Below, piece after piece: positions 4,830 to 46,532 of a stretch of 64,000 nucleotides of DNA. The notes below the pieces were generated by a model that saw only the letters and a list, made by a program, of their open reading frames with translations, ran no database searches and had not been told where the DNA came from. Position 1 is the stretch's first letter, and every line of letters starts with the position of its first letter. Location of the stretch: assembly GCA_951406725.2 (NCBI GenBank), contig OX597820.1, forward strand, positions 68,572,001-68,636,000. Reading direction: 5' to 3'. A program made the position numbers and the translations under genes. Source of the DNA: Octopus vulgaris (taxonomy: Eukaryota).

Positions 4830-5185
4830 TGGTGAGATATGACAGCAAAGAAAAGCATACATTCACTCTCTGCATGCAATTAGACTCGGAAAGTTCGTGA
4901 GGAACCCATTGACCCAATTTGCTGACTTTTCCGATAGCACACAGGTGTCAATGAATGGTTGAATGACCAAATCCAAGCTTCTCTGCTAGTTCCTCAACAG
5001 TTACGATGATATTTTGTTCCACCAGGGTTTTCAGGATGTCCTTGTCGAGTTCTACAGATCTTTCAGGATGAGGCTCGTCTTCTAGGCTGTAGTTTATGGC
5101 TCGGGATTTCTGGAACCACCATTGACACTGCCTTACGCTTATTGTCCAATCCCCATATACTGCATTAATATTTCTTGTACTTTGC
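4830..5185 (-). mobile_element. Mariner transposase N-terminal fragment
   Basis: INAVYGD..SVRQCQWWFQK..SLEDEPHPER..TVEELAEKLG..HSTI followed by GQWVPHEL: mariner HTH and WVPHEL motifs. Confidence 0.85.
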
Positions 5186-5247
5186 ACACATTTATATTCT
5201 GTTATTCTTTTATATGTTTCAGCCTTGAGGTTGTGGCCATGCTGGAT

Positions 5248-5291
<44 letters not shown>

Positions 5292-5518
5292 TATCTGTCT
5301 GTCTGTCTGTATGTATATATGTATATGTATGTGTGTGAACAATAATATTTTCAACAGATGTGTTGCAAATGTATCTGATTGTTCTCAAGCTTCAATACTG
5401 TGTGTGTGTGTTTGTGTGTGTGTGTATGTATGTATGTATATGTATGTATGTATGTATATGTATGTATGTATGTATGTGTGTATGTATGTATGTGTGTGTG
5501 TATGTATGTGTGTGTGTA

Positions 5519-10434: not shown

Positions 10435-10863
10435 ATCCTTAAAATCCTTAAATCCTTAAAAATGTTTTAGCCCGAAGGCCGCGGCCATGCTGGGGCACCA
10501 CCGCTGAATGAGCTACACTAGTTTGTGAATCCACCTCTGATACGTGGCACTTGATCAACAAGGGAGTTCGATGCTGCTGCCCGCATCCGCGTCTCCTATC
10601 GTGAGGTAGGTTCATCTGGGACTCCCAACAAGAAGAGATCCAGTTTAGTTTTAAAGAAACCCACATCCACACCATGTAAGTCTCTCAGGCATTTAGGGAG
10701 GATGTTAAAGAGCTGTGGTCCTCTGAAACCCAAGCTGTTGCAGTATCTGGACCTGTATTTTGATGGTGATGTTGGAATCCTTGGCACCACGCAGCGGCGC
10801 CCGTTCTGCGGTTGGGGTAACTTTGAATGCCAAAGTTTAGGACAAGACCCTCCAGGATTTTCC

Positions 10864-10865
<2 letters not shown>
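10435..10865 (-). mobile_element. CR1-group LINE 3' fragment
   Basis: ORF2 C-terminus YCNSLGFRGPQLFNILPKCLRDLHGVDVGFFKTKLDLFLLGVPDEP, then 3' UTR and (taaggatt)n tail. Confidence 0.85.
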
Positions 10866-10923
<58 letters not shown>

Positions 10924-11250: not shown

Positions 11251-12320
11251 CAGGGTGCGGTGAATAAATTGTCGTCTAAACTACGCAGATATGTTTGCCA
11301 AATTTACGTAAAAATATTTTGAAATACTAAATAGCAAATTTATTCAATAAATCGCAGTTGGCTTCAACCACGGTCTCCAGACGACTTCGGATTCTCCTGG
11401 AAATCTTCTGGACGGTCTCCTTGTTTAAACTGATGAATGCTGCCACAATCCTTGCCTTCAGTTTATCTTTGTTGTTACGAGGAATTTTGCTGGTCTTCGC
11501 TCAACTACACCCACACATAATAAACAAGTGGGGTGCAGTCTGTGGAGTAAGTTAGCCAGATGTTAGGGGTGATGTGATCGCAGAAATTGCCTGACAGCCA
11601 TGACTGGGTTCTCCTGCTTATGTGACATGGTGCAGAGTCTTGTTGCCAGACACAGTGTCTTGAAGCAGTTACCCGATTGATCCAGGGAAACACTATCTTC
11701 TATAGACACTTAGTGTAGGCCTCGGTGTTGAGTCTGAGGCCGTGTGTGAAGATGAATGGAGGCATAACTTCTCCATCACTAGTGACCATCCAAACACCAC
11801 GATGTAGATTAGATGTTTGATTTTTATCACTCTCAGTAAATGTTTTGGGGACACAGCAAGCCAACAGTATTTCTATGTATTCCCCATGTGATCCTAGCAG
11901 ATATTTTTCTCGTCTGAGAAAAACCAAAGCATGTTCGGTTGCAGGGGATGCTTGAGTTTGTTCAGAAGCTTCGTAGCGCGGCCTTTCCTCATGTATTTGA
12001 TAGCTTAGGATAAAATTGGCCCTTTCCCATCTTATATTCCCATCTTCATACACTACCTGCCTGATAAGAAACCTAGACACTCACAAATCCCAGGCGTTGT
12101 ACCTGATTGACTTGGAAGGGATCGTTATCAATCATGGCCTGGATCTTACCAAAAACTTCAGGAGTTCTTTAGTAATCAGAACGATCTGGGTGAGTTCTCC
12201 GAGTTGCCGTACATTCGTAATCAGCATTAAACTCATCCAACTCTTTCCGAATCTTCTGCTCTGTCCTCTGATCGACACTCAAACAATCCGAAATGTTCGT
12301 ACTGGAGTACGTAAACAAGA
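11251..12320 (-). mobile_element. Decayed maT/DD37D Tc1-mariner transposon
   Basis: TA|CAGGGTG terminus. WQQDSAPCH...DCTPL(V)YYVW has 37 residues between the catalytic positions; also TSDGEVMPPFIF..GLRLNTEAY. Confidence 0.85.
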
Positions 12321-15749: not shown

Positions 15750-16490
15750 CTTCCACTGAGGAAGGCGCCGGTTTCCAACAAAGATACAAGGCTCTATCTT
15801 TGGGATGTAGTTAACACAAATTCACACTTGGAGCTTGGGAAAAGTCTTACATATTTTTACTGTTCTACTCACAGTTTGGACTTGTAATGTATGAGTCAGC
15901 CGGTCAATTTCTCTTTCTGGAAATCCCAGTTTATCTAGATTCTCCTTTAAACACTTACTAACAAAATGTAGTGCTCCAATTATTATTGGTATGGATATGA
16001 ATTCATAGTCTGAATATAGAAGCTGGAGCTTTCGAAGTTGTCCATAGATAACACCCTTCTCTTTGATTTTCAAAGAAATATTTATATCTACAGGGCAGCT
16101 AACCTCTATGGTGAGACACACTTTTGCCCCTTGTCCCAAACAACTGTATCCGGCCTGTTATGCCTACATTTGACAGAAGTTTTGATGGGAATATTCCACC
16201 AGTATTCCTTGAGTTGATGTTTATGAATGTATTTCATAACAGAGGGGTTTTTTACGTTTATTTCAAGACAGTCTTTTTTTGCGGATGGCATTCTAAATTG
16301 TTTTAGCAACAGCATCGTGCCGCATTGGGAGATAGTACCGTGACGACATTTAAGGATAGCTGTTAATTCCATGCATAGTATCTTCCACAGAAACATGACA
16401 TAGCCTACAAATGCGGTTGCGCTTTGAGATTACAAGAGCGTCACTGTCTCTCTTGTTCAACAGGTTCTTTGTTGTAATCTCCTGTACCTG
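15750..16490 (-). mobile_element. R4/Dong-type LINE 3' end (restriction-like endonuclease)
   Basis: CRLC..EDTMH, RHDAVA, KCRHNRPDTVVWDK, TIEVSCPVD.N, IPIIIGAL; frameshifted. Confidence 0.85.
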
Positions 16491-19867: not shown

Positions 19868-20431
19868 TTATAGGGGTAAGAAATTAGAAACATTTATTAC
19901 CAGTGGTTCACATGCGTAATAAATGTCAGAAGACAACACATTTTCATATATAAGAGTGTATAATGATTTATATACAAAGAGAAAACCCTTGACAGGGCTT
20001 CTTATATGCTAAAAAGGGCAGTTCAACACAAACCACGAAAAAAATAATTCTAAAGTGACGCCGATAATGGTACTAGACTAAAAATATATTATTATTAGTT
20101 AATCCGATACTCGAGATTCCCTATTAATGACCGAATAAATTAATTTGCATCCGTAGTTCATCAGTGGGATGTCTAAATCAATGCATGATTATTTCGCTTA
20201 ATACGTACAGAAAAAAAAACACATGCGATCCCACTGATGAACTACGGATGACAAATTAATGTACTCGGTCATTAATAAGGAAACTCGAGCATGGGGTTAA
20301 CTACGAATAAGTTTTTTTTCATTTTAGTACCATTATCGGTGTGCCTTTAGAATAAATTCTTTCGTGGTTTGGAATTCACTGCCTATCTTAGCATGTAAGT
20401 AGTCCTGTCAATGGTCTTCTCTCTGTCTATA
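19868..20431. mobile_element. Fold-back element with about 200-bp arms, each carrying a hammerhead motif
   Basis: Arms 19969-20170 and 20228-20431, with inner CATCCGTAGTTCATCAGTGGGAT perfectly inverted. AGGGGT...ACCAGTGGT leader. Confidence 0.8.
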
Positions 20432-20443
20432 GATCTTTATACA

Positions 20444-20514
<71 letters not shown>

Positions 20515-20992
20515 GTATATACATATATTGAATTCGTTTTGTCAATGTCGTTTTTATTTCTACACCACACTCCTTATATTGGTTTTGTCAATTTTATTTT
20601 GAGTACCCAAGATATGAAGTAAACCAGTTTAATTGATATATTTCTAAAACGAATAACGCACGAATTATCTAAAGATCGAGATAAGTTAGTAAGTTATAAG
20701 CATCAACCTTCTAGGGCATCAATATCTTTATATGATGTCAATCTATAAGATGGAGATGTACCTGTGTGGAGAAGAAACACATTAGTCGTAAGTGGCACGT
20801 TATGTTTTGAAAAGAAGTGGCAATGAAGCATACGCAAACGTGAATACATACATTGATATTATTTGTGTATGAGTGCGCGCAGATAAATAAATGAATGTAA
20901 ATATTTATATGTAGGAATACTACCTGTATAAATGTGTGTGTATATATATATGTACATACGTATGTGTGTATGTCTATATATATATGTATATG

Positions 20993-21060
<68 letters not shown>

Positions 21061-21910
21061 TGTGTGTGTGTGTGTGTGTGTATGTGCATGTATATTTCTG
21101 TGGATATCTATATCTACCTATGTACATACACACACATATATATATGCATGCTATATGATCCTTATCTAAGCCAGCATATTATTTCTACAATATATATTTC
21201 TATATAGTGAAAAAAAGAAGACGTATATTTTATTCCTTCTAAATTAAGCTAAGAAAACGTGTCTTAATAATTATATCTTTTCTGAAAGGGGGAAAAACAA
21301 AAGAAAAAAAATTCTATCGGTTACCAAGCAGTAAGATATCCATTGCATATTGTCTTGATTAAATATGGACATAGATTAAAACAAAAGTTAAATAGGAATA
21401 AATAAGAGACAATTGATGACATTATTATACTACAGAAATAACAAACTCTATATTTAGAAACCTGATTTTGGTGAGTATAATCGATATTTCTAACGATAAG
21501 TTGACCAAGGGAACCGCTAAAATGAGATGCGTATTCCTGATGGGTCTGCTGTGAAGTAAGACACACTTACGATACATAACTGTCATGATTCGGTTATTTT
21601 GAGCGTAGATTCTAATACAAATTAGAATTTTTTTCCTGGAGGTTGCTAGCTCTCTGATGAAGTCAAGTATCATGGGAAATATAATTCTTCATATAAAGAA
21701 GTCCTTTATAAAGAGGCATAAGAAGCGTTGAATAAAAGAGAAACAAATATATTGTGTTCTGTGTGGGAATACTGGATGCAGTTTGGATAAGGTATGGCCA
21801 AATGAGGTTCGTGACGTAATATTCGACTCCCTCTCTCTTTCTCTCTGTCTCTCTCCATATATACATATATACACGTAAGCGTACATAGATACACACACAC
21901 ACATATATAT

Positions 21911-21963
<53 letters not shown>

Positions 21964-22010
21964 TACATATGTATATAGGCATATATGAATACAACTATCT
22001 GTCAATCTAT

Positions 22011-22057
<47 letters not shown>

Positions 22058-22149
22058 TTTTAAGATACTTATAATTTATTTGTCAACAATAATAACGATT
22101 TTCTCAAGTTTGTTGTGTATGATTCTTAATGTATGGGAATTGATTATCT

Positions 22150-23460
22150 GATTTATTTTCAGATTGACTATTCTGTTTGAAAATTAGAAGCACTACAAAC
22201 ATGGTCTGATCTCTTTTAAAATATCCTTTAGAGTGATGAAGTGGTATTCCATATCGGTGGGTTTGTGAACCCTCACAACTGCAACTACTGGGCTGGAGAG
22301 AATCCTCGTATTACCTCTGATAAAAGCAGAATCAGCACAAGGTTACGGTATGGTGTGGAATGACTTCGGACAAGATTGTAGGTCTTTTCATCCTTTGCAG
22401 TACCATGAATTCTGAAAGCTACCTCATCGTGCTGCAGGATGAAATGTAGCCAGCTATCAGCACTCGGGAGAATATTGAAGATTTGATGTTTGTGCAAGGT
22501 GGCGCTACTCCATATTTTGCTATTGTTGTTCATAAATGGTTGGAAGATTCCCACTTCCCTCAGAGATGGATGGATCGTCGAAGTCAGCATGATTAGCTGG
22601 TCAGAAGCCCTGATTCCACACCCTTCGACTTTTTCTTTGGGACTGGTTAAAGGAGCAAATCTACTCTAACAAACCAACAAATTCGGAAGAACTTGAAAGG
22701 CGAATACGCAAGAGTTCCTAATGAAACCGGTTGATGCGGTTCCCGGGCGGGCTGGGGAACTGGTGGCGAATGCTGCTGCCTATATGGAATTTTAAATAAA
22801 ACTCCATGCTTTCTTCATATTTTTCTTACAAGTTTCAGTTGAAAGCTGTGGCCATGCTGGGGCACAGCCGTTTTGCTACACTGTTATTATTGAGAACCTC
22901 CTCTGATTATTGACATTTGGTGAATAAGGGAGTTTGATGTCACTACTCTCATTTACGCCTCCTGTCGCGAAGTAGGTACATCTGGGACTCTCGATAGGAA
23001 GTGATCCAGTTTTGATTTGAAAACACCTGCATCCACTTAGTGTAGGTCTCACTCTTTGGGAGAATATTAAAAAGATGTGGGCCCCTGAAACCCAGGCTGT
23101 TGCAGTAACTGGTCCTGATGCGCAACGGCATTGCTGGAATCTTTGGCATTGTGCAGTAGCGACAAGTTCTGGCATTTTTGTAGCTTTCAATGCCAAAATT
23201 TGGCACAATCCCTTCCAGGATCTTCTAGATGTATTTTACTGCATAACTTTCCCGCCTTCGCTTTAAAGAGTAGAGTCGTTGCTGCTTCAGCCTTTCCCAG
23301 TAGCTGAGCTGTTGCAGTGAGACGATTTTCTTTGTGAAGCTTCGCTGGATTGCTTCAAGATCCGCTGTTAATTATATATTTACTTTTTCTAAAAATTATA
23401 GTTAATAAATAAATTATTAGTATTTTAAAATAGGGAGTTACTTTTCAATACCCCTGCATA
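22150..23460 (+). mobile_element. Decayed rosa (DD41D-like) Tc1-mariner interrupted by a CR1 LINE
   Basis: MFVQGGATPYFA..KWL..HFPQRWM.R....RSPDSTPFDFF, then WLKEQIYS after a frameshift. TIR-like gttacttttcaatacccctgca|ta near 23460. Confidence 0.75.
22825..23372 (-). mobile_element. CR1-group LINE 3' fragment nested in the rosa-like element
   Basis: PKIPAMPLRIRTSYCNSLGFRGPHLFNILPK and tail GTGCCCCAGCATGGCCACAG. Confidence 0.85.
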
Positions 23461-24214
23461 TTTATATGTACGTACATAAAACTAAATTTTAAACTGATAT
23501 GAATATATCTTTATATTTTATTCGCTCACAGAATAAAGAAGAATGTTTGACATGCATTTTTCTGTTCATACAGCAATCAGGAGTTTGCAAGTAATTCTCT
23601 AATCTTTCAATCCATAAAGAGAGCTCACAAGAATTAATAAATTTAATTTAATTCCACACAAAAAAGAAATTATTTGGAATAACTAGACAAATTAGCACGT
23701 AGCGCATTTATTGACGGTATGATTATGTAATTAGCATCTTTTTTATGTACAGTATAAACTAGAGTTTTCCACGCATCCTCTGTGAATGACTAATCAGAAG
23801 TAAAGAAACCCTGTTCTGATTCTGACTCAAAGAATAATATACGATTTTACCCTGACATGTTTTTTAGCGCCTTGGTCACTCCTCAGTGAGTAAAATATAC
23901 TTCCATCTTTTTCCATCGCTACTTAAATCAAACACAAACTAGAAATTTGCACACACACAGATACACACACACACACATACAAACTCATACATATACATAT
24001 ATATATTTTTTATACCCATAGATTTATTACAGAAAATTAGACCTTCCCATACATCTTTGTACTCTACTACTCTTTAGTGTATTTTATCTTGCCTTATTTT
24101 ATTATATTTCATTTCACCTTCCTTTACCTTCCTACCTTCTACTAACTGCACTACTGTTATCTTACTATATGTATGACATAATGTAATATTGAATATATGT
24201 ATATAAATATAACT

Positions 24215-24493
24215 TTAAAATGAGGGTGAAAAATTGGATGTTAATTTAATTAACATGAATTTAACACCAGTGGTCTAGCATATAAAAATCTGAAAGTTCA
24301 GTAAATTGTATTATATACATAAGAGAGGGATGACCACTATGTGGGAAACCCTTATGCTTGAAGAAGAACCGCTATGGTCTTACCACTAAGAAACGATCTG
24401 GTGTTTGCTAAATTTTTCGTGAGAACATTTCTTAGCGGTAAGACCATAGCGGATCTACTTCTAGCAGAAGGGTTTTCCACATAGTGGTCGTTC

Positions 24494-24500
<7 letters not shown>
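24215..24500. mobile_element. Fold-back element with about 71-bp arms
   Basis: Arms 24323-24393 and 24428-24498 with about 8 mismatches. AGGGT...ACCAGTGGT leader; followed by (TA)n. Confidence 0.75.
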
Positions 24501-24541
<41 letters not shown>

Positions 24542-24844
24542 ACTAACATTTGTGACTCTGTTGGTTATTCTGAGGTTGTTAAATCTAATTGAGATAAATG
24601 AATAAAAGGGAACGGAATTTTAGATTTTTAGTATATTGGACTTGGTTAGCAACATGTGTCTCACCTGACAGACAGTTAATAAAAATTTCAAGCAATCTAT
24701 GACTCATGTCAGGAACAATTCCTTACCAACTATATGATCACGCATTTGTCTGTCCCTTGTGGATGCTCCTTCGTTTAATAGTTAAAACTTCCTCGTCACG
24801 AATTTGTGACGTGGAAGGTTGTATTTTGTGTGTTTCGGATTATC

Positions 24845-25552
24845 TTGAGAATGGAGAGCTCAAAAGAACATTATCGATGCTGCATACTTTTTTTTTACTT
24901 TAAAAGAGTTACCAAATCGACGCAAAACTTCAGAGAGGTATGTGATATTTGTGCGGAGGGGAGTTTTCAAGATGTCGATCGGGAAATTTTTCGGTTCAAG
25001 ACACACTTTAGTCTGATAAGCCAACTGAGATTAATAGCGACAACAAATCCCGTTATATGACCAGCGGTGTCGCAGATATTTCATAAATATACAGATAGAG
25101 TGTTGAAGACCATTTGCATCAAATCCGTTTTGCCAGCATCAACTGGACAAAGCTAACCTCGCCCAGCATATTTCTATTTGCGATTCATTGCAGAAACGTG
25201 AGGAAAACAATTCTTTCTAGAAGATAATGTTAACAGAGACGACAAATGGATCTTCTATAACAATATAAAGCGCACACAATGAGACCGGAAACTCGGGAAA
25301 CCCCCACAACCAATATCTAAAGCAGGAGTTGACCTGAACAAAGGTTGTGTTTTCAGTTTTGTGAGATTAAAATTTTTCACCAGTAAAACCAATAAGTTTT
25401 TTAGTATGACCGAATGGATCTGCCCAGGTGATCTGCCTAGAAGTTACTGGAACGAAATGGTGATTATATCATTGATTGAATATATCACATTGTGTTTAAA
25501 ACTTGAGTCTTAAAAAAAAGAATCGTACGGATTCTTTGGCTAACCAAATATA
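24845..25552 (+). mobile_element. Decayed, internally deleted mariner
   Basis: MESSKEHYRCCILF, later TEDDKW-like (acagagacgacaaatgg); TIR-like ggattctttggctaaccaaata end. Confidence 0.6.
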
Positions 25553-26247
25553 TTGCTCTTTATCCGCAAGAACGTTCAACTTATTCAGAAAAATATTTAT
25601 GAGAAATTGATAACGATGTAATAGTCTAAAGATCTATCTATTAATCTAATGTTAATATGATTGAAAATTCTAAATTAGAAAGAGAGCCAAGACAATTGAA
25701 AAATAAGCCAAATTATTAAACTAAATGAAATAATAGTGATTTAGGGAGATGTAGGCGATGTTCGAACTATATCAAAACAATTCTTAAATATATGTCTGAC
25801 GATGTAGAAATTTCTGGCGTTATCTCCACTGCTTACTTAATATAATTAGACACTTTCTACTGTAATGTGGATGGAATCCTCTCAGGAATTCATAAATAAA
25901 ATAGTCCCCAGAGACTAGTTCAGAGGACAAGTTATATTAATATGGAAGAGTAATGTTTCTCATTTATTTGCAAATATACAGCCACAGGCTGCAATAGGTT
26001 CGTATATTAACGCCACCTACTGTCGTCACCGCTGTACTTGTGTAAATATACGTGGTGTATACATACAGGTTTGCAACGCAGACACACTCATAGGGGCATG
26101 TCTACTAACATTCGTATATAAACATGCTCACACAAGTATATGTGTGCAAACGTTGGTACACACGCATTTGAACAATAGGCACTGCAGCTAGCAAAATGCA
26201 CGTGCTTCCATGCATAAATCTAATGTAAAAATTGAAATATATGTATA

Positions 26248-26342
<95 letters not shown>

Positions 26343-26756
26343 GCATGTATATATATGTATGTGTATATATATACGTATATATATATATATTTATACGTAT
26401 AGGTGTAATATTTATCAGATAAGTAGATGGTGAAATTGAATGAAGATGTAAAAGAAGGTAAGGTGAGTATATACATATGTATGCATGTACATACTTGTGT
26501 GTATGCATATAAATATAAACAGATATACATGGAAATGTCACACACATACATACAGAAACACACACATAATTGCTTTCAGAAATACCTACATACATGCATA
26601 CACGCATACATACAAATATGTGTAATTTACGAATATGCATGATAGAATATATGTATGTATATATACATACATATATATATATATATACATATATACATAC
26701 ACACTGACATGCTCTCAAAATTATATATATGCATTTCTTTTATTCTTATGTGTGTG

Positions 26757-26798
<42 letters not shown>

Positions 26799-27149
26799 TG
26801 TGTGTGTGTGTGTGCGGTATATATATTTTTTCATATCCAACAATTTATGTGAGTACTCTCTCAGCCCATTGTGTATATTAATATTTCTAATATCTCAAAT
26901 ACATACGGAGAAACACACACACACACTAATGTGCGTGCACATACTATTTTGTATAGGAGACAGTGTATCCGGTTAAATGCCTAAGTAATACTAGCTTGAT
27001 CTTCAGCTACGAATAATTAAGATTAAAATTAGTCATGTTGAACGAATGCGTTTTATTATTAAATTTAATGTAATAATTTTATTATTGATTGTCCCCCTCA
27101 CAAACTGGACTCTCTAATTCATGCCATGCAGAAATTCATCAAACTGATA

Positions 27150-28000
27150 AAGCATCTTGGGAAACCACATTTCTCGTTTGCTTATTCGGATGCATTTTAA
27201 TTAATTTCTCGACATAATTTCCCATGAAAGATGTATCGGACTGAGAAATCAAAATCAATTCCTTTCAATGTCTACCATCGTGTCTTATTTACTTTGAAGC
27301 CATCCACAGTTTCCATGAAAATTGGAGACGCCTAAACATAAAGAAGCGTCCAGTGTCTGACCCTGGACAGTATCGCTTTTCTAGGGACCACAGGAAACAT
27401 TTTGGAGCCGGGAAAAGATTTACAGACTTTAACATTCACTACATTTGGTACGTCCATGTTCCTGAGAATCAAGATGAAAACTCCAAATTTAAGTTTTATT
27501 ATGTGAAAGGGCATTCAGAGAATCACAATTTAGTTTAAGGGTTCCACTGGATAGTTACAGAAACTTTATCTCTGACAACACCATCCCCAGATTTGTAGCC
27601 TTTTCTTTCCCTCGATAATTTCCAAATAACAATTTGTCGAGCTTATTGACATTGGTATTTAAAGAATATATTGCTCTTTCAGCTAACCACTCAGACCTGA
27701 TTCACTTGATAGCAGAGGAAAAGGGTTCAATTTTGAGTTGCTCTAGTTATGTTATTGTTTACTCTAGTTCCTGAGGAATATTAATGGGGTCATGCTCTGC
27801 TACAATGAAGATCTCTATATTACCAAAGTTTACTTATAGCTTTGCAATCTTTACGTATCATTCGTATCTGATAGGGGAACTATTATGTTAGTGGTGAAAT
27901 GCTCAATGGCAATGTTGCGTTATATATCAGGAGCTAGGAATGTACTGACCTCCGGAATGAGGTTTCTATCTTACTGGACGTGGCTACCAGAGACGACTGA
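27150..28000 (-). mobile_element. Decayed Helitron PIF1-like helicase fragment
   Basis: WLAERAI, MPFHIIKLKFGVFILILRNMDV (compare PPH.L.LKVG..I.LLRNL), and NKT...TLKGI...FHGKL. Confidence 0.7.
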
Positions 28001-28119
28001 AGAAACTTTCATATTTGCAGGATATGGTTGCCACAGTCACTTAAAAATAGACAGTGACTATGTTTGGTATTTTGAATAACTTTTACCCTTGCAATCTAGA
28101 AGTTCTGGTTTTAAGGTAG

Positions 28120-28250
28120 ATATTCTATGTAGTGACGCACAATCGTAAGGTTGCGCGTTGTTTCCTTGAGCAAAACACTTTATTTTGCGCTGCTCCAGTT
28201 CATTCAGCTGCTAAACATGAGTTGTCCATCTATTACAAAAGGACCAGTCT
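28120..28250 (+). mobile_element. CORE-type SINE fragment
   Basis: gtttccttgagcaaaacacttt...tgctccagttcattcagctg resembles the CORE domain. Confidence 0.45.
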
Positions 28251-29063
28251 TGAAATAGGATATACCAAATCATGATGTTGGCCGATAAGAAAAGAAATCA
28301 TTATATTTTGTTGGGTACCAAGTTATGATTCTATGGTATACCACGGTTAAATCGTCATTATAGTGTCATTCACATATTAAATACGATAAAACTATGTTCA
28401 CATTTACTTTCAGAGCGTTGTAGAAGATATATAATCGCTTTGGAAATACATACAGAAATTAATAGACCATATTAATCAACACTTTTATTGTAAAATGCTT
28501 TTAAAGATAAACAAAAATTAAACATATTCACTGTTTATTCTTGGCTCACCGATCATAAAATCGAATTAAAAGATTAAGTAGTATTTAAAGGAAATATTGG
28601 AAAATACGATGAAGTAATTTTGGCTAATTGTTCCTTGTTGTCCAAACCGTCTTATAATTACAAACAAAACACGTGTATGTATGTTTGTATGTATGTATGT
28701 ATATATATATATATATACAGGGAATGAAACAGGTATATATATAAACATTGGAAGAAGTGATTAATATCCGTAATCGATTTTCGAATATTATTGAGTTATC
28801 AGAGGTGTCTACATTAATTTGATCAATTTCTGACAAGCATGTACCAGTCTGTTTATATGCTCATCAAATCCAGTAGCTACAGAAGACTTTAGGTACTACT
28901 TTTCATACCGAAAGTGTTGGGAGCTTGTGAATTACATCACAGCCAATACTGTATCAAGTTATGATAATATGCACACGAACACATAAACACGCACACACAA
29001 ACACACATACATGCGCGTGCGCATATGCACACATGTATATATGTGTGTATACATACATACATG

Positions 29064-29097
<34 letters not shown>

Positions 29098-29310
29098 TAT
29101 ATAAATAGATGAGTGTATTTTTACCTTGTTAACAATTAACACGGAAAAATAAATAAATAGTTACCAGGGCAGCAAAAGATTGCATTGTTTATACCATTTA
29201 TTCGTTTGAATAGTATCAGTGGAATTTTCGAAACATGTGTAGAAAGTAAAAATACTTGTTTAAACCTGCGTTAACTCCATTTTTTATTCATATATATATA
29301 TATACATATA

Positions 29311-29342
<32 letters not shown>

Positions 29343-29352
29343 CACACATATA

Positions 29353-29400
<48 letters not shown>

Positions 29401-29404
<4 letters not shown>

Positions 29405-29461
29405 GGTGCCCCAGCATGGCCACAGCTCATGAGCTGAAACTAGAATCAATCAATCAATCAA
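29401..29461 (+). mobile_element. Extreme 3' tip of a CR1 LINE inserted in (TA)n
   Basis: GGCGGTGCCCCAGCATGGCCACAGCTCATGAGCTGAAAC followed by an (aatc)n tail. Confidence 0.7.
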
Positions 29462-29586
29462 TATATATATATATATATAAATTCCACTAAGGAATTTATA
29501 TCCCTTGTCAGTCTTTAAGATAGTGCATTTGTGGTGGCAATTGAGTTGTTTTGACTCTTATTTCTAGCAATCCCAGTACCAAATTA

Positions 29587-30818
29587 TCAGGCCATTAAGA
29601 ATAAAATGTCCGATTTTCTTCTGCACCAAGGTTTTGTCCTGACAGTTCTTCGTTTTACAACATTGAAGAGTTACATCATCACTTTTCAAATTGCAATTCA
29701 TGGTGTCTGATTATATTGTGAGTTTTCTCTTGTAAATCAATTTTTGTGAACCCATCGATAGATAAAACATTCTTGTTGTTTATGAATACGAGTCCCATTG
29801 TGGAACCTATGTATCCCAGACTGCTCATGAAAGTGATGTTTGGTGAAGATGTGGCAAATGAGCGCACTGTACGTCGATGGTTCGAGAAGTTTCGGTCTGG
29901 TGACTTTACTCTTGAAAATCAGCCCCGTGGTAGACCCGAAACCAAGATGGATAATGATGAACCGGAAACTGTAAGTGGGAGCGGATGCATCTCAAACTAT
30001 GTGAGAATTAGCAGCAAGATTTGATGCTTCAATTCAAACTGTATTCAAACGTCTGACACAAATCGGCAAGCTTCAGAAGGTGAACAAGTGGATTCCACAC
30101 GAACTGAACGGACATCAAATGATACGTCGTCTTGACACTTGCTGTACTTTGCTGTCACGGCATAAAAGCGAACTGTTTTTGCATCGTATTGTTACGTGTA
30201 ATAAAAACATGTATTCTTTTCAACAATAGCTAGCGTTCTGCACGGTGGTTGGATAGAGACGAAGCGCCAAATCACAATCTAAAACAGAATATTCAACAAC
30301 AAAAGCTAATGGTGTCTATTTGGTGGTCCAGCGCCGCTGTCATCCACTACAGTTCATGAGACCTGGTAAGTTCATTACAGGGGATGTATACATCAACGAA
30401 TTGGATGAAATGATGAGTGACCTTGCAATTAAAAAACCGAGATTGCTCAATAGAAACAGACCAATTGTCTTGCAAGACAATGCTCGACTACATGTTGCTA
30501 CTCAAATTATAGGAACTGAACTTGGAAGTACTCTGAAGTTCACCAGATCTTTCACTAACTTACTCTCAGGTTTTCCAGACAACCTTTTCTAAGGAAAACA
30601 GTTCAAATATGAAGAATATGCAAAAAGAGCCTTTCGTGATTTCATCACCTCTGGCTTTCCAGAATTCTTCGCTGACGGCATAAATAAAATACCAATAAAA
30701 TGGCAAAATTGTGTTCATAATTTAGGTGCATACTCTGATTAACTACATTGGTTTTTGTTGAGATAAAGTATAATAAACTTTCAGTTCAAAATCGGACATT
30801 TCATTCTTAATGACCTGA
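29587..30818 (+). mobile_element. Near full-length mariner (DD34D type) with pseudogenised transposase
   Basis: 31-bp TIRs with 2 mismatches (TCAGGYCATTAAGAATRAAATGTCCGATTTT), TA on both sides. ERTVRRWFEKFRSG, WIPHEL, LQDNARLH. Confidence 0.92.
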
Positions 30819-30890
30819 TATCAACATCTGTCACTTTAGTAACGTCTATAAATTTGCATTTAAGTTATTAAATTGCTAATAAGCCACCAA

Positions 30891-30932
<42 letters not shown>

Positions 30933-30938
<6 letters not shown>

Positions 30939-31256
30939 TAATATTAGGGTAGCAAAAAATTCAATAGAAATTATTTTGCCACCAGCGGTCCAGTGAAAAA
31001 GAGGAAATAGTCAGAGACCATTAATAAATTCAACAACAAATTGAGGAACGGCTATAATAGGCCGTTCGACCCACTAGAAGAAGCAGCCAGGGCTCCAACC
31101 GCAAATAGTAGCTGAAACAATGCATTGTCTAAAGATGAACGGGGTAAATGTTTTTTAATTTTCCTCCTTTCGGAATTACTACTATTTGCGGTTGGAGCCC
31201 TGGCTGCTTCTTCTAGTGGGTCGAACGGCCTATTATAGCCGTTCCTCAATTTTTTG

Positions 31257-31258
<2 letters not shown>
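30933..31258. mobile_element. Fold-back element with perfect 74-bp arms and a partial hammerhead
   Basis: 31038-31111 is the exact reverse complement of 31179-31252. GAAACAATGCATTGTC at 31114-31129; (TA)n on both sides. Confidence 0.85.
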
Positions 31259-31299
<41 letters not shown>

Positions 31300-31379
31300 A
31301 ATGCGCGCACGCCCACATATACTCACACGCACATATTTATACTCACTTCAACATTTGTCCACTGGAACCCATTTCATCG

Positions 31380-31960
31380 CAATGATTTCTAAACCTCCCT
31401 TAAGTGTCAGTGCCTCCATCAGCGACTATATTCAGTAAAATCCTAGGATAAATTCAACAGGCATTTCCCTCTATCATCTCTGCATTCATCACGCATGAAC
31501 GGGTACTGCTGCACTCTCTCGAACTAAGCATTAACTGTGGATGCATAATACGCCGTTCTGAACGAATCCGCAGATAATGGTATAGACTGAACTCACACAA
31601 GAAGGCATCTGCCCATCTGTACGTATATTGATGCATGTATACATAAACGTTCATGAACTACTAGTACCGGCCTTTCAATTGGTGTCACTTTGAGGTTCCA
31701 AAACTCCATAATGCCTTCAAATAGCTAAATTGAGTTGAGGTATCACGAGTTCTATCAACTTGCACTAATCCGCTAATTAGTTTGGTTGATTCTAGACTCA
31801 TAGTTGGCTGAAGAGGCTCTTCCGCCTAAACTGTGTCGTGTAATTTCGTCTAATTAAGATCAAACATCGAATGAAGATCAATACACCAAACTTCATATCT
31901 GCCATGCTACTCCCCATGACTTTGTCATGCCCCTGACTCGACGATTTTTCGTCATTGAAG
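31380..31960 (-). pseudogene. Decayed Gypsy integrase relic
   Basis: acggcgtattatgcatccacagttaatgcttagttcgagagagtg resembles TAYHPQ.NG.VER with frameshifts. Confidence 0.3.
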
Positions 31961-33213
31961 TTAACTATTCTGGTGCATATAAGAATGTATACAAATATAA
32001 CAGTAACAATTTAACATTAAAATAAAGAATTACTCATAACTTATTGTAGCGTATATATTTAATATACTTTTACAAGAAGGTTGTTAGTGACATCAAAATA
32101 TCAGCCTACTAGCTTCAATTGAACTGTCGTAGATTTAGATTCATTTCGGCTTCATACAGTCTCCAGTAAGATGCTTGTTTTAAGCAGATGGAGTGATATG
32201 GAATAATAATAATGTGTTTTGGTATGTGAAGCCAGGGTATAGATGCATATGTGCAGGATAGAGAAGGATAGATGTTAAATGGGTATGCAATATGAACGCC
32301 CAAGGAAAGATATTATAAATGGCTGTAATGTTTGAAGTGGGATTTGTTTTATTGTTCCGATTTCAATCAAGCACGTAAAACTTTACTATCAGGTATGAAT
32401 AGTTAATGTGTGTCATGCATTTCATGGGCTTATTATCATATAAACTTGACTATTGTTGCATTTTATGGTTCACAAAACAATGTAAATTGATTAAAAGGTT
32501 AGTTGTAAGCAGATGTGTAACTAGTGTTAGAATGTTGTGGGTGTTATATTATTTATATTTAGAAAATTTAACTAATGATTTATGAGAATGCAATGGTTGG
32601 GGACCCTTTTATTATGTTAGTAGTGACCCAACAGTCTCAAGAGAGAAGATGACAATCGAATGTAACTACATAACATAGATGTTTAACTGTTATGTGGAAA
32701 CTATTCTACGACAGCATTTTCTAATAATTGCGCCATACTTCCCAACTAAAGACATTTTCACGTCAATCTATAATACAAGAGATAGTTTATATTTTGCATA
32801 TAGAATTTACAAGCACCTAAGCGGCGACTTTAGATTCAAATTCAACTAGTTAGCAATTCACATGTGTGTGCATCCGTGTGTGTATGTGTGTGTATGCGTG
32901 TGTGTGTGTGTATGAGTGAGTGTGTTTGTGTATGTGTGTGTATGTATTAAATCCATATCCGAAGTTTTTGGACCTTCCTACCCACATCATCAGGAACTGA
33001 ATCCAATATATCTGCTATTTGTGTTCTTTCTTATATATTCATTAAATTCTTATAGACTTTCTCACAAAAGAATTTCTTTCAGGTAGCATCATACCTCAAG
33101 TTCTAATATGTTTGTTACGGTTAAATTTAAGCATTAGGTTTTATAAGGTTTTTATGTGTTTTTGTTCGAACAAGAGATATACTGGTTCACAGATATCTTT
33201 ATATTATACTTAA

Positions 33214-33432
33214 TAAGGTCAGCGATCTGGCAGAATCGTAAGCCCACCGGGGGAAAATATTTAGTGGCATATTGTCTGTCTTTACGTTCTGAGTTCCAAT
33301 TCCTCTGAGATCGACTTTGCTTTTAATCCTTCGGGCTCGATAAAATAAGTACCGGTTGAGCACTGGGGTCGATGTAATAGACTTAACTCTTCCCAGAAAT
33401 TGTGGGCCTTATGCCAAAATTTGAAATCTATA
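33214..33432 (+). mobile_element. SINE family B
   Basis: tRNA-like head TGGCAGAATCG...GAGTTC, body tcgactttgcttttaatccttcgggctcgataaaataagtacc. Confidence 0.8.
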
Positions 33433-33454
33433 TTATACTCAATACATGCACGAG

Positions 33455-33690
33455 TAAGACGGTGAGATGAGAGATTCATTAGCATGATGTGCAAAATGCA
33501 TAGCGATATTACGTTCGTCCTTACGATCTGAGTTCAAATTACGTGGTGGTGTACTTTGCCTTTTATCGATAAAATATTTTATCGGGGGTCGATAAAACAA
33601 GTGCCATTTCGGCAGTGGGGTCGATGGAATCGACTTACAATATCCCCTGAAATTTCTAGCCTCGTGCCAAAATTCGTGAAACCAATATAT
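33455..33690 (+). mobile_element. SINE family B, adjacent second copy
   Basis: GAGTTCAAAT B box and ggggtcgataaaacaagt...gtgccaaaatt. Confidence 0.7.
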
Positions 33691-34068
33691 GCAACAACAT
33701 ATGGTTCAAGAAATAAAAAAAAACTTGCAAAGAGAGAGAGAAAGCTGGAAATTTGTGCATAAATAGGTGGAACCATAGATAAATTTGTAGAAAAAAAATG
33801 ATAAAGGAAGATGGATAAGTGAAACACTGTTATTGATTTTTATATGCACCAGTTCCAATGTATGCAAGTATATTAGAATGTATGAAATCTCTTTTACCGC
33901 ACGATCTTTGACCTGCATTTGTAGAATATCTTAACTTGAAATATTGGCACAGAGCCTTAGAATACACGTGTGTGACCCAGATGTTAGCAGCGTCCCTGGC
34001 GATGACTCGAATGCATCATACTACAATGACGTCATCTTTGTTCAAACCTTCGTTTTTCTTTCACTTAG

Positions 34069-34190
34069 AGCTCCAGAAGATACATTGCATGAAAAAACTG
34101 TATTACAATGAGCGAATGATGTTGAAAAGAAATATATTTCAGATATTCTCATTTATGCCATTTCCCCACCCCCCTAATTTATGAGAAATG
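34069..34190 (+). other. Candidate 122-nt exon with two in-frame stops
   Basis: Strong acceptor cgtttttctttcacttag and donor ATG|gtaagt; reads APEDTLHEKTVLQ*ANDVEKKYISDILIYAISPPP*FMRN. Confidence 0.35.
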
Positions 34191-34584
34191 GTAAGTTTAA
34201 ATATCATACTTTACTGTGTTAATATTATTTCTTTTTCCAGAAAATTATTCAGATTAAACCTAACTTTAATTAAACAATTACAAGTTTACTTTGATGTAAT
34301 TATCGTCATTTACAACAACAATCTAAACTATTTCATAGAAATACTTCATTAATAAAATATCATAAAGCTAATTATTGGTGGAAAAGTAGTCCGTGTATTA
34401 CCTGCTACCTCATGGCTACAAAACTAATAAGATACTTACAACTATGCATAATGGGAAACACAGATATCTAGTCCAAATATCGCTTTTTTACATAAGGTAT
34501 TGTTTATTACGCATGTATACGCCATTCTTCAATTCGAAGTGATGTACATATATGTGTACATTAATACCTATACTTATACACAGG

Positions 34585-34643
<59 letters not shown>

Positions 34644-34659
34644 TATCATTTGCCTTTAC

Positions 34660-34880
34660 ATTTTTCAGTCATATAACTGCGGCCATAATGGGCCAGCGCC
34701 ATTTTAATCGAACAGATGGATCACAACACAATGTTTTGAAGCCTATTAAATATTCTATCGTAATCTTTTGCCGAACCGTTAAGCTATAGAGATGTAAACA
34801 CAGCAACACGGGTTTCAAGCGTTGGTGGTGAGAGACAAGCACAAACACAAAGACACACACACTCCCAAACATACATAGAC
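34660..34880 (-). mobile_element. SINE family A 3' half, degenerate
   Basis: tttcagtcatataactgcggccat...ttttgccgaaccgttaag. Confidence 0.65.
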
Positions 34881-35254
34881 ACACACACATACATGTATGT
34901 ATATATATAGTGATGCTTATATGCCAACGGAATGTGGCATTCCTATTTAAGGACGATGTTACTGCTGTTTTAGCCCCAGGTAAACATATTTTCCAGTTAG
35001 CTATCGACACACAGTTTGTGTCCGTAAAGCATTTGCAAGGGAGGTCATCGCTCTCATATCTAGCCTTACGTGATATATACGGCCATAGGCCTCTGGATGT
35101 TTACATCTCTGTAGCTTAACGGTTCGGCAAAAGATACTGATAGAATATTTAATAGTTAAAATCTGTGAAATATTGGGGTCGATGCAATACACCTTTCCTT
35201 CATATTTCAGAACTTGTTTTCATAACAACAGGTAATATTTGAGTTACTGGATTT

Positions 35255-35600
35255 GGTAAAATCGTTAGAAGATCGGCCAACACGTTTAGTTACAATCTCA
35301 TTAGACTCGGAGTTCAAATCCAAGTACGAACATCTTTTCAATTTATCATCACAGGATCGATAAAATTAAGAACTGGTAAATAACTGAGATCGATCTAAGA
35401 AATGAACCCTATTCGCTCAATTTTCAAAACTTGTACCTGTTTCCCTTTTAGGGTGGTGCGGGTGACAGATTCATTAGTGTCGGGGAAAATGCATTACATT
35501 ATTGTGTTCGGTTCTTCGAAATCTGATTAAAACTCGTGTAAAGATCAACTGTACCAGTCAATTACCTAGATCGATATAATTGAGCAACCCCGTCTCTTTA
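35255..35600 (+). mobile_element. Two old SINE family B remnants
   Basis: gagttcaaatcc...gatcgataaaattaag and gggtgacagattcattagtgtcggggaaaatgc. Confidence 0.45.
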
Positions 35601-35928
35601 ATTTGATTTATATTACAAAACCCAACAATCGATTGTTGCATTTCTACTTTCTGAGTTTCATACATGGATATTCGATTTATGAGGGATTTATTTATAAACT
35701 TATGAATATTTCAAAATAAACTTTTAAAAGAAACTAGCAACGTACATATTAATATATTTATGTGTGTTATTATGTGTATGTGTATGTGTGTGTGTTGATA
35801 TATGACTGTTTATCTATACACATAGATGCACATATCTATTTATTTATCTATATACCTATCTACCTATCTATCTATTTGGGTACATATACACACATATATA
35901 TATATATATACACTCATATATATATACA

Positions 35929-35976
<48 letters not shown>

Positions 35977-36024
35977 TGTATAGACGCACATACACCTATA
36001 TATACATGTATAGACGCACACTCA

Positions 36025-36074
<50 letters not shown>

Positions 36075-37167
36075 CACAACGCACACACTCATACACGCAC
36101 GCACACACACATACACACACACGTACAAATAGATGCACAAAGACATGCATACCACACACGCGCACCCACCCACCAACTCACACACATACACCGATATATT
36201 CTTCTTTATTGTTTGGAGCCACTATATTGTACGCTGGGCAGCAACACCAGAATCAGTCACGATATGTATTGTTGCTAACACTTTCCTTGTGACCTGTGCT
36301 GCAGGGTAAACTTCAAGCAAACGATCCCTCCGAATAAAATCACGCTTTCTCCGTTGACATTCTGACATATGCTCGGATTTAGAATATGCGCCAACGGATG
36401 AGACAATAAAATCCTGACCTGGACCTCAATCATTACCATCAACCTGGGGCCTCGGTCAAATCTGACTAATGGACAAGGCTTTTCATCTAGGCCATCTCCG
36501 ATGTCTTGTTATTTTGCTCGGTATTATTTGCCTCTTTATTTCTATGTCATCTTTCTCTTCTTTCTTTCGTTCACTACTAAAATGAATGAATGAATGATTG
36601 AATGGATAGATGAATGAATGTCTCACGTATTTCATTATAATTCCTTACAACTTTTTTTCTTTATACTGGGTTAAGGTCTTTTGCATTCCGGAAAACAACA
36701 ATTAGCAAATGCTGGATCGAATTGTAGATAATAACGTGAATAGATAAACATATTGATAGATAGACAAATAAATAGATCGATAGATAGATAAGCAGATAGA
36801 CAGAGACAGACAGATAGATAGATAGAGGGAGAGAGAGAGGGGGAGAGAGGGAGGGAGTGAGAGAGAAGTGGGGTGATAGAGTGAAATATTTCGGTGGATA
36901 GAATGGTAGACATAGTATGGTTTAAGGTTTTGTAAGGCCTTTACGCTATGTACTTTAGCAAGATAGACAGGAAATAGTTCAATTTGTATATCCAATATGC
37001 ATGCGTATGTTTGAATTAAATCTGTATGTATGTATGTATGTATGTATGTATGTATGTATGTATGTATGTATGTATGTATGTATGTATGTATGTATGTATG
37101 CATGTGCGTATGTATGTATGTATATATATATACATATACCTATCTATCTATCTATCTATCTATCTAC

Positions 37168-37233
<66 letters not shown>

Positions 37234-37280
37234 GTCTATCTATCTCTATATCTACTTATGTATCTCTCTATGTATCTATA

Positions 37281-37319
<39 letters not shown>

Positions 37320-37321
<2 letters not shown>

Positions 37322-37566
37322 ACATATAAGGGATGGCCATAATAGGACATCCGACTCACTAGAAAGAGCAGTAAAACTCCAAACCACTAATAGTTGTAAT
37401 TCTGAAATGGAAAGAAAAATAAAAACGTTTACGCTATCCTTTCTGGACTATGCATAGTTTCGGCAATCTTTTGTAAATAAAATAAATTTATTTACGACTG
37501 GCGTTGCCTCTTCAGCTGGTAGCGAAGAATTTTTCTAGAATTTTTTGCTACCCTAAAATTTATTAA
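37320..37566 (-). mobile_element. Hammerhead-bearing element of the same family as 30933-31258
   Basis: CTGAAGA-GGCAA...TTGCC-GAAA-CTATGCATAG-TC; the downstream body aligns to 31140-31250; AGGGT..ACCAG leader. Confidence 0.8.
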
Positions 37567-37799: not shown

Positions 37800-38175
37800 A
37801 CATTGAAAGCTACACCAGTGCCAGAACTGGATGACACTGTATAGTGCCAAAGATCCCAGCAATGTCATCACGCTTCAGGACCAGTTACTGCAACAGTCTG
37901 GGTTTCAAGAGCCCACAGCTTTTTAATATTCTCCCAAAGCGTCTGAAAAACTTGCACAACGTAAATGTAGGGCGTTTTAAATCAAAGCTGGACCTCTTTC
38001 TATCGAGAGTCCCAGATGAACCTACCTCACGGCAAGAGGTGCAAATGAGGGTAGCTATATCAAACTCCATCCTTCACTAAGTTCCACATATTAGAGCAGG
38101 CTCTTAGTAATAACAGTGTAGCAAGGCGGCGGTGCATCAGCATGGCCGCGGCTCCGAGCTGAAACTAGAGAGAAA
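37800..38175 (+). mobile_element. CR1-group LINE 3' fragment
   Basis: PKIPAMSSRFRTSYCNSLGFKSPQLFNILPKRL...FKSKLDLFLSRVPDEP plus the shared tail. Confidence 0.85.
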
Positions 38176-38580
38176 AAAAGCATATATGCACACACACACA
38201 CACAGAGCCACACACACACTCACACACACATATATTAGCGACAGAGGCAGTATTATTACCGAGAATTTATATATATCCACGCTTAAACATGGAGGTGCTG
38301 TTAGAGCAAACTACACTGCGGTAGTTACAATGAGAGAAACACTAACGTTTGCCAACATGAGAGTTCCTCTCGTGGTATCTTGGTATCAACCACATTATAA
38401 TTTGTTCCAACAGAACATTCATGTTTAAGTAGGGATATTAAATATTATATGGACTGCCTTGAAGAATTTTAGTCGCAGGAATCGACACCAGGGCTTAGCT
38501 GGTTTTAAACCTGGTGCTTATTCTGTTTTATACAAACATAACGGAATACTACACACACACACACACACATACACACACAT

Positions 38581-39053: not shown

Positions 39054-39375
39054 CATCTATCTATCTATCTGTCTGCCTGTCTGTCTATTTATTCACATTA
39101 TTATGTACAATTCGATCCAGCATTTGGTAATTGTTGTTTTCTTGAATGCAAAACACCTTAAACCGAATAAAAAGAAATTTATAAGGAATCTTAATGAAAT
39201 ATGTGAGACATTCATTCAAAAATACAGAGCACATCCATATTCCTGGTAATTTAAATACATTAAAAATCTGAGTTAAGTAAAACAACTTCAGGTGGATAGT
39301 GGCATACGACATAGAGGTATTCTATAATTCTTCTATGTTTTTGCCCCCGTTGGTCCTACAGATATCGTAGGACAT

Positions 39376-39416
39376 CATGCTGATGAGGCATTCCGAAGCA
39401 GAAACATGTGTCCACG
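39376..39416 (+). ncRNA. Type I hammerhead ribozyme motif (slightly decayed)
   Basis: catg-CTGATGA-GGC-attccgaa-GCA-GAAA-CATGTG-TC-cacg. Confidence 0.65.
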
Positions 39417-39846
39417 TGTTCTTATATACACACAGTAAGACTCTACTTCTTTTAAATGACATTTCAACTTCGGAGAATTCGTGTTCTAGAGATAATCTAC
39501 TCCTCTAATATGGATCATGTCACAATTGGAATTCGATAATTGTGGACAAAACATCTCCAAGCAGAGATAATTACGATAAACTGGATATTTCTGTAACATG
39601 GAATATGATATGATTATATTAGTCGATGTTTATCATATACATGCTAGTGGCCACTAACTTATTTCTCATAGGTATATTTTTACGTGTGTGTATGTGTATA
39701 TATGAACCTACGTGTGCACGTATATATGTATGTGTGTATACTTACATGTATGTATGGATATTCCTAGGTATATATAATTAGGAACAAATATCAAGTACGA
39801 GTATGGTGCTTATTCCATAGTAGATGGAATAAATACATACATGCAC

Positions 39847-46317: not shown

Positions 46318-46532
46318 ATATATATTGAGAATCAGGAGGCAGTCTAAGATTTTGGAGAATCCTTTATTATCGCTTTCGTACGTTTTTTGAACTCCTCAAG
46401 ACAAAATAAGAATCCAAATGATCTGATTTAGTCTTGCCGAGTTCGAAAAACGAGCGATTGCTCTGATAAGGTGTTATCCAAAATTGTGATTATCCACACA
46501 CACACACACACACACCCACATACATAAACACA

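Follow-up and report, generated by a model that had tools for sequence, protein, structure and literature searches.

Four fold-back loci with damaged hammerhead motifs in Octopus vulgaris: probable truncated insertions of a Penelope-like retroelement

A 64,000-nucleotide stretch of the Octopus vulgaris genome (assembly GCA_951406725.2, contig OX597820.1, positions 68,572,001 to 68,636,000; hereafter the window) contains four related short loci, named E1 (19868-20444), E2 (24215-24500), E3 (30938-31258) and, on the minus strand, E4 (37320-37562). It is likely, in our view, that a Penelope-like retroelement (PLE) with an endonuclease left E1-E4 behind as 5'-truncated insertions, made by priming at two sites and head-to-head joining. 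Hammerhead-bearing truncated PLE ends are known as a kind and are abundant in animal genomes. The origin of inverted PLE insertions with a one-sided tail is an open question (PMC8557442), and an in vitro test has been reported for one element only (PMC11167929). What is new here is a tail of 85-100 nucleotides (nt) together with a predicted hairpin before each of two 3' ends. Such a long tail or hairpin pair was not found described in the open literature searched, Repbase, Dfam and subscription papers being outside its scope. Natural predictions for PLE insertion follow from the layout: in divergent families alike, reverse transcriptase (RT) would start at two sites separated by 85-100 nt, with a covarying hairpin immediately 5' of each.

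Insertion anatomy of the four loci

An initial annotation of the window had described a common leader at four loci, three inverted repeats, a homologous body and (TA)n or (TG)n flanks. The leader was recovered: the pattern GGGT-N20-45-ACCAGYGGT gives three full matches (19874-19907, 24224-24274 and 30947-30989), where 100 shuffles gave 0.03 matches on average and never more than 1; the comparison is not blind, as the pattern was derived from the loci themselves. The fourth leader, that of E4 (37515-37554, minus strand), ends at ACCAGC. The three inverted repeats were found as well, with arms 82, 86 and 99% identical in E1, E2 and E3, respectively; E4 has no self-overlap. The homology of the body held in part. 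Pairwise comparison with 500 doublet shuffles gave significant similarity for three of the six pairs (E3-E4 z = 20.8, E1-E4 5.2, E2-E3 4.9), which link all four copies into one chain, and no significant similarity for the others (E2-E4 z = 2.1, E1-E3 1.4, E1-E2 0.2). E1 and E2 are distant relatives and, since only half of the pairs are significant, at least three divergent families are represented. Runs of (TA)5 or longer lie within 15 nt of six of the eight element ends (background: 6% of positions within 25 nt), in agreement with the proposed TA targeting. The left end of E1 is 22 nt from (TG)n, and the left end of E2 has degenerate TA only, the closest run being 209 nt off.

The outer ends of the elements are fixed, and the inner junction is different in each of the four copies: one junction lies upstream of the hammerhead, one at the core, one within the motif and one downstream of the motif. 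Running from the junction to the outer end, the hammerhead strand thus has the polarity expected of a 5'-truncated retroelement. Along this strand, the left arm extends 85-100 nt beyond the point where the right arm contacts (TA)n, and this one-sided tail is present in all four copies. The leader is the tail read antisense, as the initial annotation had held. Every copy is shorter than 600 base pairs (bp) and has no open reading frame (ORF). An ORF start within body and tail was looked for in the three tail-bearing arms, and all 9 of 9 frames contain stops. Profiles built from the four copies revealed no fifth copy in the window.

The AGGGT-(N)-ACCAG segment forms a predicted hairpin in which GGT pairs with ACC. 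Its pairs were counted directly, the MAFFT alignment having misregistered this hairpin. The closing stem covaries: pair 4 is A-U, G-C, G-U and A-U, and pair 5 is A-U, a mismatch, G-C and G-C. In E1, E2, E3 and E4 the predicted stability on the hammerhead strand corresponds to z of -0.87, -3.23, -3.37 and -4.52 vs. -0.11, -1.75, -1.01 and -1.89 on the opposite strand; hence the hammerhead strand folds better in four of four copies, significantly so in E2-E4. A second hairpin is predicted before the short 3' end, with z of -3.25 in the E1 left arm, -2.88 in E3 and -2.55 in E4; it is weak in the E1 right arm and in E2. A telomere-like hint given in the initial annotation was not supported: telomeric endonuclease-minus PLEs (Athena/Coprina) have stretches of the telomeric repeat in reverse complement and are attached to telomeric arrays, whereas the tails of E1-E4 show a single hexamer in two of four copies and no array, and TTAGGG occurs 13 times in the window against 15.8 expected. 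The conserved ACC(C) is explained without a telomere role, because ACC belongs to the closing stem of the tail hairpin. A candidate conserved splice acceptor (a pyrimidine tract followed by AG/AAT in E1, E2 and E4) was dropped, since the same place reads CGG in E3 and CTG in relatives.

Relatives of E3 are multicopy in other genomes. Part of E3 is shared by 20 of 24 sequencing runs from four organisms (at most 29% of its words), and the contigs aligning to it at 80% likeness number 383, 241, 64 and 4 in four public runs; summed contig depth does not equal copy number and was not used in that sense. Two fixed 3' ends about 95 nt apart recur in the runs X2, X6 and X16. At the short end, contigs exit into TA/CA repeats at 31035-31039 (X2, X6, X16) and at 31251 (X6); at the long end, eight contigs of X2 do so at 30940. 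Upstream of GAAA, where E3 has its junction, nine contigs of X2 and five of X6 continue; the added sequence ends in GTACGTC, a candidate for the 3' strand of stem II, and the 30 letters displayed do not reach the CUGANGA half. The junctions themselves vary. In some relatives the left arm goes on for longer, up to 105 nt (X17), and one contig has an alternative junction, 31073 to 31227, with a short side of 25 nt. In an X17 contig the inversion takes in only a few bases beyond the tail. A loose-end consensus, the far letters of which may rest on few contigs, joins a tail cut near ACCAGCGGCC to the sense body, as in E4. The upstream continuation and the varied junctions indicate that E3 is one truncation of a longer multicopy unit. 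Scans of contig collections gave one match among viral contigs and three among metagenome contigs (L001-L004), all four of them chance ones without the element body or TA runs.

Hammerhead remnants

The minimal type I hammerhead with palindromic stem III, reported in the initial annotation together with core pieces in three loci, is recognizable in outline on the sense strand of the terminal repeat. E1 and E4 have core boxes and stems, and E3 has the 3' half; all are damaged, and none of the four copies holds a complete undamaged motif. CTGATGA and GAA are present in both arms of E1. In the right arm U16.1 is replaced by C; in the left arm A15.1 is replaced by U, and stem I has a mismatch. Stem III after GAA reads ACTCGAGC in the right arm and TCTCGAGT in the left one. 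The sequence ACTCGAGT, formerly given as stem III of E1, never follows GAA in the window and turned out to be a composite of both arms. Only when the two arms are combined can a stem I of 6 bp, a palindromic stem III of 8 nt and the cleavage triplet GUA be deduced. In E4 the two core boxes, a stem II of 5 bp and a palindrome of 12 nt are present, the junction having removed the 5' strand of stem I (2 of 5 pairs). E3 begins at GAA, and E2 begins downstream of the motif and contains none of it.

A hammerhead descriptor, designed after the loci were seen, has two full matches in the window (the E1 left arm and 61636) vs. one in total in 20 shuffles; its relaxed form has one match (E4) vs. none in 20 shuffles. 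The E1 right arm fails the descriptor at stem II. Self-duplexes of stem III are predicted at -15.7 kcal/mol for E3, -16.5 kcal/mol for E4 and -9.5 kcal/mol for the E1 right arm. For the palindromes in isolation no stable hairpin is predicted; in the context of E4 a 4-bp hairpin with a tetraloop is. The 12-nt palindromes would favour a dimer but can close such a 4-bp tetraloop hairpin, so the parent may also act as a monomer. The E1 transcript is predicted to fold into one long duplex that masks the hammerhead, and the hammerheads of the window copies are predicted to be inactive. Dimer cleavage is inapplicable to E1-E4 as they stand, because the motifs are damaged and the two hammerheads of E1 lie on opposite strands. 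Dimer-cleaving PLE hammerheads were reportedly described by Lünse et al. in 2017.

Hammerhead-like motifs also occur elsewhere in the window. The one at 61629-61712 (plus strand), which contains the second full descriptor match, consists of CTGACGA, a long stem II, GAA, the palindrome ACGCGT and a stem I with 4 of 5 pairs. There is no fold-back or TA flank nearby, and the motif may stem from an old PLE end that belongs to a different family, or be a chance match (one per 20 shuffles). A compact motif at 39374-39418 (plus strand) reads CATG, CTGATGA, GGC...GCA, GAAAC ATGT GTC and CACG; its stems I and II each have one mismatch. Rfam gives no hammerhead at 39350-39450, and the constrained fold of this motif is weak.

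Parent element and competing explanations

The standard PLE insertion is an inverted 5'-truncated copy with a tail of 30-40 bp on one side (PMC8557442, PMC3846280). E1-E4 resemble canonical PLE insertions (Penelope/Poseidon PAc, Adineta Pen2a, Neptune) in the head-to-head truncated copy, the optional one-arm tail, the terminal-repeat hammerhead and the opposite-strand pairs. Opposite-strand hammerhead pairs were reported 100-700 bp apart, the motifs being mostly solo and probably related to truncated PLEs (PMC4209133). Unlike the canonical insertions, E1-E4 are predicted to form a hairpin ahead of either end, and their tail is without an ORF conserved across copies, whereas the tails of PAc and Pen2a lie in the ORF start. 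PLEs make up 6.83% of O. vulgaris, in 190 families (PMC13282606 supplement), so that four such scraps per 64 kb are to be expected. The Penelope-derived origin proposed in the initial annotation is most likely, and it is the insertion anatomy, rather than a link to an ORF, that argues for it.

The parent probably belonged to the Hydra clade or stood near it. In this clade of PLEs with a C-terminal endonuclease the target is (TA)n, and all members carry hammerheads; these lie in sense orientation close to the 3' end, and their short stem III is palindromic for the most part (Craig et al. 2021, PMC8557442). Hydra proteins are marked by RWK and DKT motifs, a CxCX5C linker and an endonuclease lacking CCHH. 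E1-E4 share the (TA)n target, the sense minimal hammerhead and the short palindromic stem III near the 3' end. The (TA)n preference is not specific to Hydra, because Neptune and Naiad share the microsatellite bias. The Naiad clade is without a canonical hammerhead (PMC8557442), whereas E1 and E4 have all three stems in outline. The element Hydra-1_Obim of Octopus bimaculoides, annotated without a pseudo-long terminal repeat (pLTR), has TAGGGTA at base 8, a possible hairpin and CGGTC, and by eye its leader resembles that of E3 and E4. Words of 7, 9 and 10 nt are shared between them, and the E4-leader words ATTCTTCGCT and CGCTACCAG have their sole occurrence in the 584,262-character supplement of PMC8557442 within the first 100 nt of Hydra-1_Obim. 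A possible tie to this pLTR-less element would be a modest, testable addition. TAGGGTA itself occurs eight times in the supplement. It is also seen about 55 nt from the 5' end of the octopus Naiad_Omin consensus, perhaps by chance.

The tail was shown to be the stretch between two internal RT start sites, RT initiation lies within a stem-loop, and AT-rich DNA is cut on both strands; the protein is predicted to dimerise, and hammerhead cleavage is dispensable for insertion in vitro (PMC11167929). For E1-E4, the parent RNA would comprise, in this order, an ORF, a minimal type I hammerhead, about 130-150 nt, a hairpin, the short 3' end, the tail of 85-100 nt, a hairpin and the long 3' end. An RT/GIY-YIG protein would nick both strands of the (TA)n target. 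Within the RNA, each hairpin would have a start site immediately on its 3' side, and the two complementary DNAs (cDNAs) begun there would halt early at variable points and then be joined head to head. Overlapping cDNAs would produce the fold-back of E1-E3, and a tail cDNA halting first would leave none, as in E4. The hammerhead would be a passenger, and in the parent its cleavage would probably be most efficient in a dimer. An alternative route to the same layout may be the self-priming on antisense templates that was proposed for PLEs (PMC3846280); E1-E4 show no evident junction palindromes. One may further speculate that the two conserved hairpins, about 95 nt apart, are a ruler by which an RT-endonuclease dimer positions its two RT starts; in a full-length insertion, the long inverted tail on the 5' side would then be a new 5' end or promoter, replacing the direct pLTR that Hydra-1_Obim lacks. 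We regard this whole proposal as unlikely.

The small size and lack of an ORF in all four copies would also suit dedicated non-autonomous PLE derivatives of the retrozyme kind, in which a PLE protein would act in trans, with the same two-site priming, on short masters that code for nothing. It was reported that a pLTR sequence is by itself sufficient for integration in trans (PMC3846280) and that retrozymes derive from PLE pLTRs (bioRxiv 10.64898/2026.07.22.740005); animal non-LTR retrozymes are likewise non-coding, a few hundred bp long, provided with a type I hammerhead and PLE-related. However, retrozymes form head-to-tail tandem arrays (PMC7229834 and the same preprint), at least two units in succession, with an intact hammerhead per unit and circular RNAs, whereas E1-E4 are single head-to-head truncated units with damaged motifs, and head-to-tail units are found in none of the window copies. 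Moreover, the four copies have four truncation points, the relatives extend upstream, and 5' truncation is typical of most PLE insertions anyway. This origin is thus unlikely, and the loci that the initial annotation had taken for retrozyme-like non-coding elements are read here as truncated copies. An explanation that we find quite improbable makes the leader a true 5' end (promoter or start) of a master with a built-in inverted repeat, the short copies being internal deletions that arose via template switching across this hairpin. It draws on one X17 contig (record 10, 30940-30986, depth 4.5) that runs for 179 nt of non-microsatellite sequence past the outer end of the leader, with two CCAAT about 20 nt apart in the 30 letters displayed. 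This extension is a candidate continuation or promoter of the master or an insertion site, between which one contig cannot discriminate; RT initiation at an internal position or insertion at a chance site would account for it as well. The tail hairpin, for its part, is more stable on the strand opposite to the leader in four of four copies. The E3 arms, 99% identical, have in common a variant at 31080/31210 that hardly any relative has, as is to be expected when two arms derive from a single template stretch. It would also be unusual for target-primed reverse transcription to keep the 5' end in all four copies with the whole ORF lost.

Short, non-coding, TA-flanked fold-backs in a window with Tc1/mariner fragments may recall TA-targeting miniature inverted-repeat transposable elements (MITEs) of a DNA transposon, in which hammerhead-like words would be incidental. 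Fixed terminal inverted repeats, named in the initial annotation as the mark of a MITE, were not seen, nor was a uniform length: the inverted arms are sub-terminal, with the leader outside them, they measure 216, 84, 80 and 0 nt, and the junctions vary among relatives. A target-site duplication would be illegible within (TA)n. In addition, the hammerheads have all their stems and palindromes in outline, and none of the 20 shuffles matches the relaxed descriptor, although this descriptor is post hoc. A MITE origin appears to be very improbable. Such loci are nonetheless at risk of being annotated as MITEs or microRNA hairpins; at E1, Rfam returns microRNA-precursor matches below the gathering score.

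The preferred explanation, truncated insertions of a PLE, has a number of observations against it. The tail is about three times as long as the published 30-40 bp, the tail hairpin of E1 is not significant, and the hairpin of the 3' body has no consistent strand preference. With Pfam, 150 of 220 candidate window frames gave no match to a PLE domain, mariner fragments and sub-threshold matches being all that appeared. The Rfam scan suggested in the initial annotation yielded no hammerhead at E1 or E4 with E up to 10. The Hydra-1_Obim comparison was made by eye with words chosen after the sequence was seen, and five other words of the window are absent from the same supplement. The leader of Hydra-1_Obim lies ORF-sense, which also fits a true 5' end. 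Its hammerhead and 3' end are unlike those of E1-E4: about 35 nt follow the hammerhead in Hydra-1_Obim vs. about 130-150 nt in E1, E3 and E4, and further differences are stem III palindromes of 12 nt, a stem II region of 37-47 nt and the lack of any ORF seen. Finally, given the small share of E3 words in each run, the sequencing runs show relatives rather than this genome, and the contig details come from 23 of 95 loose ends and 28 of 693 pieces, with 30 letters per loose end. A scan of the window for short peptide motifs found no PLE RT motif, and there is no hammerhead among the best 150 of 557 Rfam matches for the whole window, most of which fall on microsatellites. The Rfam miss is probably due to the 37-47 nt stem II region.

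Feature coordinates and other repeats

Table 1. Parts of E1-E4, with positions in the window and strand.
Feature	Positions	Strand	Remarks
E1 tail (leader read antisense), ~85 nt	19868..19954	-	extends left arm past (TA)n contact point of right arm
E1 predicted tail hairpin	19875..19901	-	closing stem GGUAA/UUACC; weak, -5.1 kcal/mol, z -0.87
E1 left arm, inverted 5'-truncated copy	19955..20170	-	82% identity to right arm, 216 nt
E1 left arm, damaged hammerhead	~20101-20170	-	descriptor match at 20164 minus
E1 unpaired spacer	20171..20227	+	probably sequence upstream of the hammerhead of one of the two copies
E1 right-arm hammerhead	20228..20297	+	stem I ATCCCA/TGGGGT; CTGATGA 20234-20240; long irregular stem II; GAA 20280-20282; stem III ACTCGAGC; U16.1 lost
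E1 right arm, sense copy, entering (TA)n	20228..20444	+	arm comparison
E2 tail, ~100 nt	24215..24317	-	predicted hairpin 24225-24268, -11.9 kcal/mol, z -3.23
E2 left arm, inverted copy	24318..24399	-	86% identity to right arm, 84 nt
E2 sense copy, truncated downstream of hammerhead, (TA)n end	24400..24500	+	arm comparison
E3 tail, ~95 nt	30938..31034	-	predicted hairpin 30948-30983, -14.0 kcal/mol, z -3.37; the two end points are seen again in other genomes
E3 left arm, inverted copy	31035..31111	-	99% identity to right arm, 80 nt
E3 hammerhead 3' half	31114..31129	+	GAA, 12-nt palindrome ACAATGCATTGT, C; sequence reading
E3 sense copy	31112..31258	+	predicted terminal hairpin ~31223-31244 before (TA)n; arm comparison and folding
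E4 partial tail, ~48 nt	37515..37562	+	sole inverted part of E4; predicted hairpin 37518-37552, -17.5 kcal/mol, z -4.52
E4 hammerhead without 5' strand of stem I	37446..37515	-	CTGAAGA; stem II GGCAA/TTGCC with long apical hairpin; GAA; palindrome ACTATGCATAGT; C
E4 sense body, (TA)n end	37320..37445	-	predicted terminal hairpin; E3 homology z = 20.8

The window has a G+C content of 32%, with TA/TG runs occupying about 10% of it, and contains many repeats resembling short interspersed nuclear elements as well as scraps of mariner and long interspersed nuclear elements (LINEs). Two old fold-backs, at 38273-38438 and 46349-46484, are 68 and 72% self-complementary, respectively, lie by TA or CA runs and have apparently terminal arms; they are possibly MITEs and, by profile, are unrelated to E1-E4. 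Fragments of Tc1/mariner transposase were found at 29722-30589 and 63107-63553 by matches to HTH_48 and Transposase_1, and at 4948-5391 and 11700-12080 by eye. The frames 55683-56192 and 15822-16429, which have no Pfam match, resemble by eye fragments of a LINE RT and restriction-like endonuclease. A repeat family that resembles LINE 3' ends, with 70-80% identity, is present at 10464-10871, 22820-23234, 37801-38177 and 55372-55700.

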